From sequence record OR780565.1: 64,000 nucleotides of DNA. One strand, written 5' to 3'. The translations under genes and the position numbers were made by a program. The notes beneath the pieces were generated by a model. That model was not told where the DNA came from. It did no database searches and was given only the letters and a program-made list of their open reading frames with translations. The stretch is from Escherichia phage DCP2. Of this stretch, positions 6,447 to 28,834 are shown in pieces. Every line of letters begins with the position of its first letter. Position 1 is the first letter of the stretch.

Positions 6447-7451
6447 TTAAAATGTAAACAGAATATTGATTTCTTCTGTCTGATCCATTGCCATGATAAT
6501 AGGTGGCCTATTTTCCATATAAATCATTTCGCCCGAATGCCTCATTAAATCTTCTGGATCATAATAATCCTTTTCAGCTTTAACGTTTGGGTCATTTGGA
6601 TGAACTTTAGCTTCAAGAGGATTGGTGATTATTGATATTTGTCTAAATCCTTTATTTCCCGGTAATGCAGCATCAGGAAAATAAACTGAATCTAAATATG
6701 CTTTAAAACGGATAGTATTTGCCTTAACACGGTAAATTAATCCAAAATCATCTTGTTGCCAAGTGAGATTATCTTCATACCCCCATCTAGTTGGGTCTTC
6801 TTTTAATTCCTCAGGCCAAGGAACTACGATATATTCATTTGTGCATCTATTTATAGATACATCAGGCGGAATCTCAAAAAGATATTCCCAAACATATCCG
6901 TCTCCAGGTTCGATTGTTCCTTCCGCGTCTCCTCGACCTTCAGGAGGAGTCATTGACCTAACAGAAGGAGTCCATTTTCCACCTAACTTAATACATTCAT
7001 CCTTGTCAGTCAAAGATGTTATTGAGCATGTTCCTGTGTCAGGAACATCTAAACAACGATATACTAGCCATCCTGCGCCTGATTCAGTAGCATTGTAAGG
7101 AGCTGAGTTACATACTACAATATCGTTAATTCTAAATGTGTATGGATCCGGATATCTAGTATCTCCCCAATCTCTACGAGGAATAACCGCATCAAGCATA
7201 GATGGAAGAACCTTTACGGTTCCCATCATATGAGTCCACATGTCAGTTACACCCAATACAGAATCAGTTGGATAAGGTGGAGCAAAGCCCACCTCATTTT
7301 CATTTGATGACCACGGTTCTGATCTTCCAAATGTGATAAAGATAGTGTTTTTATCCGGACCACTCCCAATTGAATTATAAAAATTCAACATTTTTTCTGT
7401 TCTAAATTTTGAAGTAACTATCGCACGATAGATAACACTTGAATCATTCAT
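6447..7451 (-). CDS. 8: Baseplate wedge protein gp8
   Basis: 334-aa ORF, same length as T4 gp8; synteny. Confidence 0.8.
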   Translation of the reverse strand: MNDSSVIYRAIVTSKFRTEKMLNFYNSIGSGPDKNTIFITFGRSEPWSSNENEVGFAPPYPTDSVLGVTDMWTHMMGTVKVLPSMLDAVIPRRDWGDTRYPDPYTFRINDIVVCNSAPYNATESGAGWLVYRCLDVPDTGTCSITSLTDKDECIKLGGKWTPSVRSMTPPEGRGDAEGTIEPGDGYVWEYLFEIPPDVSINRCTNEYIVVPWPEELKEDPTRWGYEDNLTWQQDDFGLIYRVKANTIRFKAYLDSVYFPDAALPGNKGFRQISIITNPLEAKVHPNDPNVKAEKDYYDPEDLMRHSGEMIYMENRPPIIMAMDQTEEINILFTF

Positions 7452-10400
7452 CTATTTTAACCTGTGTTGGATTTTCAGGGTCTCTTGGATTTCCTATATT
7501 ATCTTTTAGACGTTTATTAACTAAATCCCTAAACTGTGCAAATGTTGTTCCAGATGCGTCAAATAGAGGACTCATTAACTTGCGTCGTTCAGAAGGCAAT
7601 TGACCTTGAAATATTGAATTACTATTTTCAGCATTATAGTCATCAGGAAGAGGATATTTTACACCAGCCATTGGGCCAGGTTCATAAATTGCTTCTCCTG
7701 TCACTGAATCATGTTCAATTTCGCCAGTTGGAGTTAATTTAGCTACTCTATCAGCATATTCAGTAGGCAATCCAGAATCCCATTTGTAGTTTTTGTATTT
7801 ATTAATTATAGTCTCTGTGTGTTTAAGAGTTAAACCAACATTAATAAACATCGTTAAAAGGGTAATTGCTATAAATCCAAATCCTACTGGATGAACAAAA
7901 CGAATAACGTCAGATTTCCAGCGAGAAGAAGGTAAATTGGATTTAATTTTCATTACATAATATGATCGGCTTCTATTAATATAGTCTATATTATTTTGAA
8001 GCAAATCCTTTCCTTTAACACCACGAATAATTTCGCCTTCAAAACTCGGAAGTCTTTCTGCTTTAACTTCTTGACCAGCAATTAATCTTCCCAAAAGATT
8101 ATGAATAGTTACGGTCCATTGCAATTTACCATTAGAATAACTTCTTTCTATATAAGTAACATTACATCTTCCTGTGGCTGTATAAATCGTTTGTCCTACC
8201 AAATCTTCAGTTAAAGAATCAGATTGAACGATTATATCGTATTCAGTACCAGCACCAGATTCAATTTCAATTTCAACTTCTTCATTATAAAGAACTTTAA
8301 AAAGAAATTTGTATGATGCTTCAATTCCTTTAGTAGAATAAAAATCATAGCTACGTGATTCAAAAAATCTTGCAACAGCATCACGTTTGTCAGCATTTAA
8401 ATAAATGTTTCTTTTATATATCTCTGACCACAAATATTCCCATGCATGCTCTTCTCGTGGATATTTGTTACGAATTAAATTTCGTAAATTGTTATACTGA
8501 GTTCCATATCCATCAGAAAGATATTGAATATATGCTTCGCAAAATGCCTCAAAATTCGAATCTTGTAGTAAATAAGAATCAGGCATCATTGTGCCAATCA
8601 ATGGTCTTAAATCAGGGTCAGCTAATCCGTGCTCTTCTTCTGGTGACCAAGGAGTCTCATGCTCTTGGTTTTGTAAAAATGCTTTTAAAAATATTCCAGT
8701 TGGCTTCCAAATTATTTCAACCGTGTCTCTCACTCGATAGTTAAAATCATAATAAGAAATTATTTCACCAGAGGATTTATAAAAAAGCATCCCAGACGCA
8801 TATTTTTTAAATCCCGTGAATTTAACGTTTGGCATTACTATAGTGCAATCGCCGTCATCCCAGTATTCATGAACTAATCTATCTGGCGATGTTTCTGGAA
8901 AATTTTCAATAACTTTAGTATATTTTAAATCTGCATAAACTACCACAGCCCTATTAGAGTTGTTTATCCAGCACCGTGTATTAGACTTTTTAGACCAGTT
9001 AAAGAATGGTTCTGCATAGTATTTCATTGGCTGAGGCGTAAAAGTTTCCCAATCAGACTTTTCATCTGCTATAAATGCCATCATATGATAATGCTTATCA
9101 GCTAACCATTCACGAGGAAATTCATATTTAACGGCACCGATTAACTGATATTTTGCTACAGTTTCAGGGTCATTAACAACGTTATCATTTAAAAATTTAA
9201 AATTACTCGAAGATAGAGAAACTAATTTACCATCAGTTGACATATTCGCATACCCAGGTTGAATACGTCTTCTTTCTTCTTCAGTGTTGCCAAAAACTCT
9301 TTTCCACGTTTTTGTGTCATGATTTAAAACATATATTCCTTTATCAGTAGAATCAATTATTTTTGACGTTCTAGGATTAGCATTTAATGTTTCAACTTCA
9401 CCGATAATAAGAGCAAAAACTTTATCACCAATAGAATCCATTTTATAGCATACTGCTTTAGGATTTCCAGTTATAGTCATTGTATCAGGTTCAAATAGCC
9501 TTTCCGAATATGTTGGAGATAATGGATCAGAATCTATAGGTGCATTACTCGTTTTTATGTATCTAACTTTGTCTCTGGCGACAACGTAAATGTAATCATC
9601 GGTGCAAGTAATAGCTTCAGCTATACGATACACGTTTGCAGGTAATGTAGCATAAGTACCAAAGATTTCAACATCAAATCCCAAATGAAGTTGATCACCA
9701 AGTTTAGCGAATGTTATGTCCTGCGAACTAAATCTGACATCATCAGCTGACCATCTAACATCAGTAGATTTGCGGCCATAGAAAATCTTGTCGTATCCTA
9801 GAACGTATGTTGTGCTCGCAGATTGGTAATATACAGTCTTAGATAAAGGATATCCTACACGGTCATTGAAGAGCTTTACAGCTTTCCAGGTTTGACCTTT
9901 ATCATTGGATACTTTAACTACAGGTTGATAACGCTCAAAAAGATATAGAATCCCTTCTGATTCCATCAAATAAACTCGATTAATATCCTTACATACTTGC
10001 TGAATAGAACCTTGTATTTCATGATACTCATTTTCACCAATAATAAAATTACTTATTGATGAAACATCAGCATATGATGGGCTGAATTGGAATGATTCAT
10101 TCATCAATGCAGCCATTATAGTATCATTATTAAAATTAACATAGTCAGAATTATTAAGAGTAAATTTTTCCTGAATGAATTTATTAGCTAATTGCATTTC
10201 AATCATGTTTTGAAATGTATAAGCGTTTGTAGCAAAAGTTTCAAACTCTTCGGTATAAATCCAATCAGACTGCTCAAAATCCTGTGCAGCTGTAGCTACT
10301 CTAATAATGTACGATGTCAATGGATTAGCATTATCAAAAAAGAAGCTGTTATTTGCAGTATATCCTAAGTTAATCCATCGGTATTGATTGCTCGGGAGAT

Positions 10401-25053: not shown

Positions 25054-25154
25054 GTTTACGCAGGCTCATGATTGAGATATTATGAGCCTATAATTTGACG
25101 ATAGAGTATTATACTCCTACGGATTTTAAATCTCAATTAACCTAAGGAAATACT

Positions 25155-25748
25155 ATGAACACACTGAAGAAAATTGTTGAGTTTATTCGCACTAAACTTG
25201 GTTCTGCTATGGCTAAAAATCTATCTGTCGAAGAACAGTATACTGCTGCAGCAGCAAAACTACTTGATAAAATTAAAGATCTAAAAACTGCTTCTGTTAA
25301 ATCTATTAACGAAGAAAAACGTATTCGTGAACTTGTTATCGAAAAGAATCGACAGGCCGAATCAAAAGAGCGTGAAATTCGTAAACTTCTTTCCGAAGGC
25401 CAAGATGTAACAATGCATGCTAAACTCGGTTTACTATATCGTCGAACAGCTGAGCAGTTGACTACTAAGGCTGACGGTTATGCTGAAATGCGAATTGAAA
25501 TCGCCAAGAAAGTAGTTGAGTTAGATGATGCTCGTCAAGAACTTGCGGTTAAATTGGAATATATCCGTGAAACTCGTGCAGCAAATGCCCTTGGAATTAG
25601 TACTGCCGATGATGTAGTTGAAATTGCAGCACTGACTAAGGTTGATATTGAAGATACCCTTGCTCGAGTTGAAACCTTTAACGGTAATATTTCTGGGGTT
25701 GAAACTACCTCTGCCGATGTTCAGGAATACATTAATTCTCTGAAATAA
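25155..25748 (+). CDS. Coiled-coil protein
   Basis: 197-aa ORF, largely heptad-like charged/Ala-rich sequence; SD aaggaaat upstream. Confidence 0.5.
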
Positions 25749-25752
25749 TGAT

Positions 25753-25770
25753 AAGGGGCTTCGGCCCCTT
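25753..25770 (+). terminator. C(UUCG)G tetraloop hairpin, weak U-tract
   Basis: aaggggc-ttcg-gcccctt read directly. Confidence 0.4.
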
Positions 25771-25789
25771 ATACTTGGAGTAAATAGGA

Positions 25790-26404
25790 ATGAAAATGAA
25801 AATGCAAAGTGATTTCAATTCAATGTTTGAAGAGTTCCAAAGACAGGTTGATGTTCCAGACCAATTACTAAATGCTCTTAAACGCATGGCAGAAGGACGT
25901 AATTACTATTGGGGGTCTTCATATGAAACTGATGAAAGCCTTTCCGGAAGATTTTCTAGAGGTAAAAAGTCTTTAATACGTCCTGGAATACTTATTAACA
26001 GTATTGAATCAATTCATTTATTAACATGTGATTTTGACGTTGAATTTACTGATTTTGTTTCTCCTGAATGGACGGTCTGTTATTTAAACGACGATTATGA
26101 TTATCTTGGCGTTTATAGTTTAAGTGATGCACGGTTTAAACGTAATTTACAAAAGTCAAATTTATTTTATATTGATACTACGGTAAAATTTCAGGGCAAG
26201 AAATATTTCTTTACTCTTATAGTTGATTCTGAAACGAAGCATGAGAATAAACGTATTCTTAGTAAAAAGAATATCTTAACTATTGTTGATGATCTTTTTG
26301 ATAAATTCGTAGAAAATCCCAATTTTGAAAGCGATTTATTACTAGAAAAATTTGTTAAGGAATGTAGAGAATATGTCAAAACCATCACTATACCTTCCAA
26401 GTAA
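25790..26404 (+). CDS. Hypothetical protein, first member of a C-terminal F-V-x-E-C-R motif family
   Basis: 204-aa ORF ending EKFVKECREYVK... Confidence 0.5.
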   Translation: MKMKMQSDFNSMFEEFQRQVDVPDQLLNALKRMAEGRNYYWGSSYETDESLSGRFSRGKKSLIRPGILINSIESIHLLTCDFDVEFTDFVSPEWTVCYLNDDYDYLGVYSLSDARFKRNLQKSNLFYIDTTVKFQGKKYFFTLIVDSETKHENKRILSKKNILTIVDDLFDKFVENPNFESDLLLEKFVKECREYVKTITIPSK

Positions 26405-26765
26405 ACCGTTGAAGTATGAATTAAAGCGCCAGCTAATTCCTACTGATGTATTAGTAGGTCCTGTGACAGCTGTATCATTTATAATCCTAATGATTATTGG
26501 AATAGTTATAGATGTTACTACTGATATTGAATCAGACGCAGTATTTCTGTTAGTATTAATTCTTCCATTAGTAGTTCCATTTTTATTAGTACCTGTAAAT
26601 TGGGTAGGATACTGGTATCAAGGAAGACATTATCGTAAACGCGTACGCGAATGGAAAGCTCAGTGTAAAAAGATTAAAAAGGAACATCAGCTTAAACTTG
26701 CTGCGTATGAATTTAATGAAATTATGAAATTTGTTAAGGAATCACGATGCAAAAGCCAAAACTAA
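26373..26765 (+). CDS. Small membrane protein (family member)
   Basis: Internal Met start; two hydrophobic helices; C-terminal KFVKESRCK. Confidence 0.5.
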   Translation: MSKPSLYLPSKPLKYELKRQLIPTDVLVGPVTAVSFIILMIIGIVIDVTTDIESDAVFLLVLILPLVVPFLLVPVNWVGYWYQGRHYRKRVREWKAQCKKIKKEHQLKLAAYEFNEIMKFVKESRCKSQN

Positions 26766-27109
26766 ATAAAGTCAAATATTCGTTTCCAGAGGCACTATTA
26801 ATTCTTGCCATATCAGCATTTGCAGCTCTTGCAGGTAGTCTTATTGGATTAATGATTGACTGTCTTATTTTAAACATCGACGGCACAGTAAATATAACAG
26901 AAGTTTGGAGTGAGCTTTGTTATACTAAAATTATTTCATTGTTTTCATTCTTTGGTATCATTTTATATTTTCATTATGATAATTTTAAAATAAATTGGCA
27001 AAGAAAAAAGGATTACAAAATACAATTAAAAGAATATAATAACTACATGTCTTATATTGAAAAAGAATCAATGGAAGAGTTTGTGAGTGATTGCAGGAAA
27101 ATTAAATGA
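26747..27109 (+). CDS. Small membrane protein (family member)
   Basis: 120 aa; two hydrophobic helices; C-terminal EFVSDCRKIK. Confidence 0.5.
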   Translation: MQKPKLNKVKYSFPEALLILAISAFAALAGSLIGLMIDCLILNIDGTVNITEVWSELCYTKIISLFSFFGIILYFHYDNFKINWQRKKDYKIQLKEYNNYMSYIEKESMEEFVSDCRKIK

Positions 27110-27594
27110 TTTTAAAAACTCGCTGGTATGATTTAGATGATGGAGATGATGGCATTCCAGTTGATAGAGTTGATTGGAATGGCTGTTCCGAAGATATGAA
27201 AAATTTGTTGATTAGGGAGTTTAGAATGGGATATCAAGTAGTTAAGCCATCTACTGTAACAGACGATAAATTCGTTTGTATTCAAAACGGTCGTGCTAAG
27301 TTAACGAACGCTGAATGGTTTACGGATAAGAATATGCTTCTGTGGTATATCATTAGTCTTCCTGCGTCATCATTCGTATTTTACTTCTTTGGAAAAAATC
27401 CAATGGACAGAATAGGAGATTGGGCTCTTTGTACTATATTTGTTAATATTTTTACTGCAGCAATATTATCCGGAATATGGTGTGTGTTCATTGAAATGCC
27501 ATGGCGGTTACGCAGACAACAAAAGATTTTTGATGAAAAGAAATATGCTCAAAATTTAAATAACTTTATCACTGAATGCAGGAAATTAAAATGA
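27106..27594 (+). CDS. Small membrane protein (family member)
   Basis: 162 aa; hydrophobic helices; C-terminal NFITECRKLK; ATGA coupling to nudE. Confidence 0.5.
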   Translation: MILKTRWYDLDDGDDGIPVDRVDWNGCSEDMKNLLIREFRMGYQVVKPSTVTDDKFVCIQNGRAKLTNAEWFTDKNMLLWYIISLPASSFVFYFFGKNPMDRIGDWALCTIFVNIFTAAILSGIWCVFIEMPWRLRRQQKIFDEKKYAQNLNNFITECRKLK

Positions 27595-28031
27595 AAACAT
27601 TATCAGCTGGTATTATCTTTATGACAGAAGATAAAGATTTATTTATGGGACGAGTTACCGGTTCTCGTAAACCTGGAATGATTGCACATCGCTGGGATAT
27701 TCCAAAGGGGCGTGTAGAAAGTTCTGATTTGAATGCACTGGAAGCTGCAAAAAGAGAATGCTCAGAAGAGACTGGTTTTATCGATTATAATCCAGACCTT
27801 CTAGAAGACTTAGGTGTATTTAAATATTCTAGTAATAAAGACTTACAGTTATTTTATTATACGATTCCAGTAGAGCATGAGATGTTTAGAAATTGCCATT
27901 GCGAGTCTTATTTTGAAAATAAAGATGGCGTTATGATTCCAGAGATGGATGCTTTTGCTCTTATTCCTCGTACTCAGTGGCAATATGTGATGGGTCCTTC
28001 ACTTTACCGAATAATGAACAGCCTCTTTTAA
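27591..28031 (+). CDS. nudE: Nudix hydrolase NudE
   Basis: Nudix box GRVESSDLNALEAAKRECSEETGF; position immediately upstream of e. Confidence 0.85.
   Translation: MKTLSAGIIFMTEDKDLFMGRVTGSRKPGMIAHRWDIPKGRVESSDLNALEAAKRECSEETGFIDYNPDLLEDLGVFKYSSNKDLQLFYYTIPVEHEMFRNCHCESYFENKDGVMIPEMDAFALIPRTQWQYVMGPSLYRIMNSLF

Positions 28032-28834
<803 letters not shown>

Follow-up and report, generated by a model that had tools for sequence, protein, structure and literature searches.

Positions 25,790 to 27,594 of a 64,000-nucleotide (nt) stretch of Escherichia phage DCP2 (record OR780565.1), referred to here as the window, hold four consecutive plus-strand open reading frames (ORFs) that are orthologues of genes e.5, e.4, e.3 and e.2 of phage T4. 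One soluble and three predicted membrane proteins are encoded, and all four end in a common short tail that appears to be conserved mainly as a peptide, its codons probably doubling as the Shine-Dalgarno (SD) sequence of the next gene and as a recombination joint. Over 25100-28100 the window matches Escherichia phage D5505 (MK327929, Tequatrovirus) at 100% identity and some 500 further T4-like phages at 90-98%, and the gene order e.6 > e.5 > e.4 > e.3 > e.2 > nudE > e is the same in D5505 and in T4 (NC_000866). The genes of the array and the one that follows it are:

25790..26404, plus strand: e.5 orthologue, 204 amino acids (aa), soluble, head of the array; phrog_2607, E = 9e-109
26373..26765, plus strand: e.4 orthologue, 130 aa, predicted transmembrane (TM) segments at about aa 28-46 and 57-75, basic tail predicted to be cytoplasmic; phrog_2604, E = 6e-70
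26747..27109, plus strand: e.3 orthologue, 120 aa, predicted TM segments at about aa 17-35 and 57-75; phrog_2330, E = 1e-57
27106..27594, plus strand: e.2 orthologue, 162 aa, predicted TM segments at about aa 77-95 and 103-121; phrog_2203, E = 6e-76
27591..28031, plus strand: nudE (Nudix hydrolase), 146 aa, Pfam NUDIX E = 4e-13 and synteny with T4; not a member of the family

The matches to PHROGs 2607, 2604, 2330 and 2203 each extend over nearly the full length of the protein, which places the four in the T4 e.2-e.5 orthologous groups; order, sizes and overlaps are alike in T4, where the genes also lie upstream of nudE and e, although the T4 reference differs in having an e.2 truncated by two frameshifts. 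PHROGs keeps e.5, e.4, e.3 and e.2 as four separate families without known function, Pfam assigns Phage_T4_Y06P, Y06O and Y06M to the orthologues of e.5, e.4 and e.2 respectively with none recorded for e.3, and the T4 GenBank entry L13089 names the genes msp4-msp7. Public names of the proteins are 'hypothetical protein', 'membrane protein' or evidently spurious labels. As had been predicted, each stop overlaps the next start, by 32 nt (e.5/e.4), 19 nt (e.4/e.3), 4 nt (e.3/e.2) and 4 nt (e.2/nudE). Judged from this arrangement, e.5-e.4-e.3-e.2-nudE appears to be a string of translationally coupled cistrons with nudE as the last, resembling ATGA-type coupled phage cistrons in its overlaps of 4 to 32 nt and in the placement of SD sequences inside the upstream coding sequence. 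Ordinary translational coupling does not impose a common peptide of 9-10 residues on successive divergent proteins.

The original prediction, made from the letters of the window, held that the four ORFs share a C-terminal tail, and the endings read exactly as claimed: e.5 carries FVKECR followed by an 11-residue extension (end EKFVKECREYVKTITIPSK), e.4 has the shifted variant FVKESRC (end KFVKESRCKSQN), e.3 ends in MEEFVSDCRKIK (EFVSDCRKIK) and e.2 in NNFITECRKLK (last ten residues NFITECRKLK). The common ending is Φ-x-x-F-[IV]-x-[ED]-C-R, and QNLNNFITECRKLK is an example of the tail peptide. In the whole 168-kb D5505 genome, the pattern [FY][VIL].[ED]CR finds 3 matches in 1283 six-frame ORFs of at least 30 aa, and all three are the C-termini of e.5, e.3 and e.2.

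The tail is found well outside Tequatrovirus. In a survey of eight phages from seven genera, in which distant loci were located by their nudE gene and the region upstream was read, 31 tail-bearing proteins were collected, 30 of them encoded between e.6 and nudE; the exception is an ORF of phage KP179 (8455-8763) that lies between nudE and e. Arrays of one to five tail-bearing genes occur in Tequatro-, Mosig-, Dhaka-, Gapriver-, Jiaoda-, Karam- and Winklervirus, while no tail-bearing ORF was seen upstream of nudE in the one Slopekvirus and the one Pseudotevenvirus phage checked. The consensus of the 31 tails is [LI]-[EN]-x-F-[IV]-K-E-C-R-K. Counting from F as position 0, the positions required by the search pattern are F in 29/31, I or V in 30/31, C in 24/31 and R in 29/31, and those left free by it are L or I at -3 in 18/31, E or N at -2 in 21/31 and E at +3 in 18/31. 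Where position +4 is not C it is I, V, M or S, and it thus seems to behave as a packing residue rather than as a reactive cysteine.

The RB69-like phage JK45 retains tails on e.5, e.4 and e.3 (its e.3 being 36% identical to that of D5505) and has two further two-TM tail proteins, gp130 (...ENFIKECRGK) and gp128 (...ERFITECRNLR), which are conserved in about 150 RB69-like records, mostly Mosigvirus. Orthologues of e.2 in Dhaka- and Gaprivervirus have 31-45% identity and retain the tail, with the endings ...SFIKECRK in Bp7 and ...EFIEECRK in MX01 (both Dhakavirus). Further tails are RFITECREYAKE..., EEFIKEVRNGTA, ETFIKECKS and SFIEECRK in VR26 (Gaprivervirus); EFIKYCRERVQK, EFVKEVRRK, AWIRSCRK, SWIKEMK and LFIAKCRAK in KP179 (Jiaodavirus); NFIRMCRKNRLQ..., GFINDCRKARK, EFIAECRGKK, NFISRCRIKR and NFIQGIRGTR in UFV01 (Karamvirus); and EFVKMCRTKH..., YFIKECR, DFIKGCRNEH, NFIKGCRK and DFIRGIRS in Vettismorki (Winklervirus). 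The arrays are headed by soluble proteins in the position of e.5 that extend past the motif (...ECREYVK...); that of VR26 is homologous to e.5 over 98 columns (E = 7e-5), and that of KP179 matches e.5 in the tail only. As arrays occur in seven genera of Tevenvirinae, they do not reflect a recent local duplication, and on sequence evidence the array family is old and Tevenvirinae-wide.

Three of the tail-bearing ORFs, 98-112 aa in length, are unannotated in their records: KP179 (locus L018) 7149-7445 and 8455-8763, ending in AWIRSCRK and LFIAKCRAK, and UFV01 (locus L019) 6760-7098, ending in NFISRCRIKR. The two that lie inside the arrays, 7149-7445 and 6760-7098, overlap the stops and starts of their neighbours.

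Hydropathy agrees with the earlier claim that the last three ORFs encode membrane proteins, as two TM segments are present in each of e.4, e.3 and e.2 and none in e.5. K/R are missing from the inter-TM loop of e.4 and e.3 and number two in that of e.2, whereas all three proteins have a K/R-rich N-terminus and a C-terminal region of 41-55 residues with 9-15 K/R; this distribution implies an N-in/C-in orientation with cytoplasmic tails, and the three are thus predicted to be inner-membrane hairpins. In e.2 an extra acidic domain of about 75 aa precedes TM1. The e.5 protein is probably a soluble alpha/beta protein with the tail on its last helix, since the AF2 model places the motif within helix 183-198, where the predicted local distance difference test score (pLDDT) is about 80; the overall pLDDT was 45 from the single sequence and 64 with an alignment of 11 sequences. 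Foldseek gave no fold match of the e.5 model in the PDB, the best entry (RelP, E = 0.019, TM-score 0.17) being disregarded, and matches of the model in BFVD are uncharacterised T4-like phage proteins only. In the PDB the tail region also matched the tetramerisation domain of VASP, but at E = 0.6 this was not significant and was not used.

How far the four genes are duplicates of one another differs from gene to gene. Smith-Waterman alignment with shuffling relates e.4 to e.3 at z = 5.1 from Met1 (MSKP / MQKP) through the tail, and e.3 to e.2 at z = 3.1 in the C-terminal part only, and finds nothing outside the motif between e.5 and the others. Profile comparison by hhalign gives E = 5e-5 for e.4 against e.3 over 110 columns, from residue 1 to the tail; e.3 against e.2 (E = 3e-4) and e.5 against e.3 (E = 5e-3) match in 13 tail residues only, and e.4 against e.2 gives nothing. 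A weak cross-match of e.3 to the e.4 family phrog_2604 (E = 0.0019) was also found, and seven membrane proteins align as TM1-loop-TM2-basic helix-tail. The tandem duplication and divergence that had been proposed for the whole array is accordingly upheld for e.4 and e.3, which by these alignments are true full-length paralogues, is plausible for e.2, and fails for e.5, which has a soluble fold and only the tail in common with the membrane genes and is not a duplicate of them. The outcome that would have spoken against duplication, proteins not alignable outside their last 10 residues, is refuted for e.4 and e.3 and partly holds for e.5 and, by sequence, for e.2, where the shared part is the last 13 residues or so.

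The case for e.2 as a duplicate of the membrane genes comes from its architecture of two TM segments plus tail and from a natural hybrid. In phage OP555981 (locus L014, 3001-3321; protein P0131) e.3 is lost and e.4 is joined in frame to e.2 to give a protein of 106 aa, the crossover lying within TM1 of each gene, where the two match imperfectly over 10 nt, tcctg(t/c)g(a/t)ca. This hybrid is present on 5 contigs, and its persistence implies that the hairpins are interchangeable enough to last as a chimera.

The junctions between the genes are themselves repeated, as had been claimed; a repeat finder ranks two junction repeats at the top of the region. Their copies are:

26348..26363, plus strand: 16-nt exact repeat AAATTTGTTAAGGAAT, copy 1, K-F-V-K-E codons of the e.5 tail; AAGGA is the likely SD of e.4
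26727..26742, plus strand: 16-nt exact repeat AAATTTGTTAAGGAAT, copy 2, K-F-V-K-E codons of the e.4 tail; AAGGA lies 6 nt upstream of the e.3 ATG
27080..27109, plus strand: 30-nt junction repeat, copy 1, F-V-S-D-C-R-K-I-K codons, AGGAAA as SD, ATGA overlap with e.2; left crossover partner
27565..27594, plus strand: 30-nt junction repeat, copy 2, F-I-T-E-C-R-K-L-K codons, AGGAAA as SD, ATGA overlap with nudE; right crossover partner

The two 30-nt copies match in 24/30 nt, a value reached in 3/200 first-order Markov simulations of the region, and the 16-nt exact repeat was reached in 0/200, the maximum being 15 nt. The longer repeat also coincides with a natural deletion. In an IMG/VR genome (L005) and in PP01-like phages (protein P0007, with 163 member sequences, of which four contexts were read), e.2 is absent and e.3 is followed directly by nudE with an ATGA overlap. 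The joint is of e.3 type through ...GAT TGCAGGAAA and of e.2/nudE type after it (...TTAAAATGAAAACA), from which the deletion is a crossover in the 9-10-nt identical TGCAGGAAA core of the 30-nt repeat; such a crossover explains the CRKLK ending of these e.3 proteins. As tblastn at 60% identity or more finds e.3 in 498 phage records and e.2 in 447, the three-gene form is not rare. Short direct repeats commonly give rise to deletions in T4; this repeat stands out in that the ORF, the tail and the ribosome-binding site (RBS) are all intact after the deletion. A second candidate recombinant, Ec_YwIITB1 (L023 1695-2067), was ruled out, as it shows only a frameshift that interrupts e.3, either a pseudogene or a sequencing error.

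Promoter-early stem-loops (PeSLs) are known from modular shuffling in the hyperplastic regions of T4-type phages (Arbiol et al. 2010, PMC2839356; Comeau et al. 2014, PMC4122927). The present junctions are similar in being short gene-boundary repeats in a variable T4-type region, at which otherwise unrelated genes are exchanged or deleted; however, PeSLs are intergenic promoter-plus-terminator units and the junctions here are overlapping coding sequence with no intergenic space. Promoter-like sites in the region are not above background (23 against 18.3 +/- 4.6 in shuffled controls), and the junction RNAs fold no better than shuffles in four 75-nt windows (z from -0.44 to +1.5). An intergenic promoter and terminator are thus lacking while an indel joint between related phages is present, and the junctions are not PeSLs; the indel joint is a functional likeness, not membership. 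As the repeat lies inside coding sequence and encodes both the peptide and the next SD, recombination at it keeps frame and coupling.

The codons of the tail bear on what is being conserved. Between D5505 and JK45, e.3 retains F-[VI]-x-[DE]-C-R-K with tgc changed to tgt and agg to aga, and e.2 of D5505 retains F-I-x-E-C-R-K against Bp7 (36% identity) and MX01 (45%) with atc changed to att and agg to cgt; the tail of JK45 gp130 uses ttc, tgt and cga, and the e.3 Cys codon is polymorphic (tgc/tgt) even within Tequatrovirus. Overall, tgc/tgt, agg/aga/cgt/cga, atc/att and ttt/ttc vary under constant residues, which points to selection at the level of the protein. Nor is the spacing fixed, as 17 to 28 nt separate the F codon from the next ATG. 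It therefore appears from sequence comparison that the peptide, not a fixed nucleotide string, is conserved, and that the constraint is dominantly at the protein level. Of the three constraints originally offered for the tail, namely coding, an embedded RBS and recombination at the repeats, coding is thus the main one, and the other two stand in a secondary role.

The secondary role of translation initiation is visible at every junction, where an SD-like AAGGA, AGGAAA or GAGGA lies within the motif codons, 6-11 nt upstream of the next ATG. AAGGAA (K-E codons) is the SD where the tail ends in CRK* or the start comes early, AGGAAA (R-K codons, with the rare AGG) is the SD where the tail ends in CRKxK*, and GAGGAAAA is that of JK45 gp130. 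The purine-rich K-E or R-K codons are thus likely to double as the SD of the next cistron. The fraction of identical residues encoded by the same codon is higher in the last 22 codons than in the gene body for e.5 (0.85 against 0.50) and e.4 (0.83 against 0.59), as expected from the 32- and 19-nt dual-coding overlaps, and AGG-AAA is invariant within the Tequatrovirus e.3 and e.2 tails.

Taken together, these data are best accounted for by an old array of membrane hairpins with a soluble e.5, whose tail is a docking or assembly element selected as protein and whose tail codons double as SD and recombination joint, a reading we consider reasonably probable. The membrane members would have arisen by tandem duplication and divergence, as the alignments show for e.4 and e.3 and as may be supposed for e.2, and the same tail would also be carried by the unrelated soluble lineage of e.5. 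The tail would be a short helical element with one common partner, either the array proteins themselves or a cytoplasmic protein of the phage or host. With gene ends nearly identical over 20-30 nt, the junctions would act as short direct repeats, and recombination at them takes out, or could insert, an entire gene with frame and coupling left intact, the natural e.2 deletion being an example.

Several alternatives would assign the conservation to something other than a docking peptide. If conservation were at the RNA level, with the tail serving as the translation-initiation region of the downstream cistron and the peptide as a by-product, then the SD in the motif codons of every junction, the rare and in Tequatrovirus invariant AGG, and the raised same-codon fractions of the tails would all follow. 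The SD, however, sits in different codons at different junctions (K-E or R-K), so that an RBS cannot explain the F, I/V and C positions or the occurrence of the motif in the array only. F and I/V are the most conserved positions and lie upstream of any SD, at variable distance from the ATG, C and R persist through codon changes, more than 270 other genes of the genome need an RBS and have the motif nowhere, and the junctions show no significant RNA structure; we regard this explanation as unlikely. A recombination-driven origin, in which the repeats are cassette boundaries (PeSL-like units within coding sequence) that gene conversion homogenises and the peptide itself is without function, is likewise quite unlikely, although it would suit the precise e.2 deletion with its joint in the TGCAGGAAA core, the 16-nt repeat of e.5 and e.4 in which all five codons are identical, the end of Mosigvirus e.3 at the tail junction followed by a different gene block, and the presence of the tail on e.5 despite its unrelated body. 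The repeats are short (9-16 nt exact) and diverged, and between genera the peptide is retained although the nucleotides differ, whereas homogenisation by conversion predicts the reverse; the 16-nt identity itself is lost in Mosigvirus (ttt att atg gaa against ttc gtt aag gaa). The other known recombinant, e.4::e.2, crossed over in TM1 and not at a junction, and, short-repeat deletions being general knowledge in T4, no dedicated element is needed.

A lipid-binding amphipathic helix, targeting e.5 to the membrane and lying at the interface in the membrane members, has hydrophobic residues at -3, 0, +1 and +4 followed by R/K in its favour, together with a hydrophobic moment of 0.66 for the e.5 tail that only 0.5% of shuffles reach, and with the fact that every carrier besides e.5 is a membrane protein whose tail faces the cytoplasm. 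In the ten other tails tested, however, the moment falls short of significance and mean hydrophobicity is negative (-0.3 to -0.8), lipid-binding helices would not usually carry the conserved acidic residue at +3 or E/N at -2 and -1, and the e.5 model places the helix in the folded domain with moderate confidence; this explanation seems about as improbable as the recombination-driven one. A docking or assembly tail is to be preferred over it, as the tails are hydrophilic overall, that of e.5 alone is significantly amphipathic, and the conserved E(+3) and R(+5) suggest specific contacts. Chance or compositional resemblance might be considered for gene ends in an AT-rich genome in which K/E/N-rich C-termini are common; it can be practically dismissed, with the strict motif in 3/1283 ORFs, all at array C-termini, repeats that exceed simulations, and 31 proteins of seven genera that all but once lie in the same interval. 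The membrane members also resemble class II holins in having two TM segments, a predicted N-in/C-in orientation, a basic tail at the C-terminus and a location a little way upstream of e, the endolysin gene, but no holin model is among the Pfam, PHROG or NCBIfam matches of the array proteins. At 120-162 aa, e.4, e.3 and e.2 exceed the usual length of class II holins, a tandem set of three to five copies is not typical of holins, and T4-type phages already have the holin T.

Several points weigh against the docking-tail reading favoured here. By profile, e.2 and e.5 share only about 13 residues with e.3 and e.4, so that for these two the 'family' rests on architecture and position only, and an exhaustive hidden Markov model (HMM) search with the e.4/e.3/e.2 profile against 1.8 billion representatives returned 8 proteins, all from T-even phages, which means that the deep relationships rest on a short motif and synteny, not on statistics. 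The tails are only weakly amphipathic, with a significant moment for e.5 alone. Synonymous variation is reduced in the e.5 and e.4 tails and AGG-AAA is invariant, which means that constraints at the nucleotide level contribute. No named family, solved relative, informative fold match or match of known activity was found in Pfam, NCBIfam, PHROG, the PDB or the fold searches, and no paper on the e.2-e.5 genes was found in the searchable literature.

None of the annotations examined records the shared tail, the paralogy of e.4 and e.3 or the array-wide distribution, and databases list four unrelated families. Novelty is therefore claimed modestly: the motif and the family relationship are new with respect to annotations and searchable literature, while the genes and the kinds of mechanism are already known. 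The tail joins about 30 'hypothetical' proteins of seven genera, several unannotated ORFs included, into one group, and a shared cytoplasmic tail offers an experimental handle in a region of the well-studied T4 where e.2-e.6 have no known function. One short sequence would be constrained at three levels, as peptide, as SD and as recombination joint, and this junction design may explain how gene number changes cleanly in a coupled array between related phages. A bolder and rather doubtful possibility is that the tail is a C-terminal 'address' peptide by which changing T-even accessory proteins are plugged into one cytoplasmic partner or into each other, thus making the locus a plug-and-play cassette array; if true, genes could be gained, lost or fused in such an address-peptide array without breaking frame, coupling or targeting. 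Should the array proteins be ordinary accessory membrane proteins, the result is a useful improvement of annotation and no more.

In T4 NC_000866 (locus L001, 4491-4961, minus strand; corresponding to window 27106-27594), a -1 and then a +1 frameshift reduce e.2 to 102 aa, while the gene is intact at 162 aa in D5505 and most relatives; in the T4T record it appears as e.2a and e.2b. The tail codons of T4 e.2 and the nudE RBS persist downstream as unannotated sequence, and T4 as kept in laboratories could be a natural mutant in e.2. Within the E-C codons of the e.2 tail (gaATGc; window 27576-27593) is an ATG in frame with nudE, which the T4 RefSeq uses as the nudE start (151 aa); the D5505 record uses 27591 (146 aa), and the latter looks real from the AGGAAA SD 7 nt upstream and the ATGA overlap.

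The features that flank the array in the window are:

25155..25748, plus strand: e.6 orthologue, 197 aa, helical/coiled-coil, synteny with T4 e.6; not a member of the tail family
25751..25772, plus strand: G+C-rich stem-loop with a GGGGCTTCGGCCCC core between e.6 and e.5, from a terminator-like scan
28068-28556: e (T4 lysozyme), 162 aa

The stem-loop is a putative terminator in the MK327929 annotation and a stem_loop in the T4 record L13089, and no promoter is annotated between it and e.5; the L13089 annotation places sigma-70-type -35/-10 signals upstream of e.8, e.7 and e.6 and none directly before e.5. Gene e.6 was found ahead of the array in all six genera for which the upstream region was read, and it is much better conserved than the array: its identity is 88% with the copy in Mosigvirus and 55-75% with those of four other genera, that of e.5-e.3 36-58%. 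Hydrophobic residues in its C-terminus are spaced as in the family tail. Searches of Pfam, NCBIfam and the PDB gave no relative of e.6, and a PspA/IM30-like role as partner, suggested by eye, is unsupported, as a profile of six e.6 orthologues matched neither a PspA/Vipp1 chain in the PDB nor a PspA_IM30 model of Pfam.

Two further groups of small proteins were seen in the related loci. A conserved acidic protein of 76-78 aa (MSIAIYIKSE...) is encoded between the last tail gene and nudE in Mosig-, Dhaka-, Gapriver-, Jiaoda- and Karamvirus (L010 8935-9171, which is JK45 gp127; L015 4492-4728; L017 7754-7990; L018 7768-8004; L019 7762-7992); neither D5505 nor T4 has it, nor do the other Tequatrovirus loci that were read. 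A second tandem family, which the window lacks, consists of two to four small acidic proteins ending in a W-[VIF]-[ST]-S-S-x-x-C-type sequence or in ...PSSC (L004 4357-5151 in JK45; L015 32-1070 in Bp7; L017 from 3271 in VR26; L020 5013-5572 in Vettismorki). In Mosig-, Gapriver- and Winklervirus its genes directly follow the e.3-like gene; in Dhakavirus they occupy the equivalent region, upstream of the e.2 homologue.

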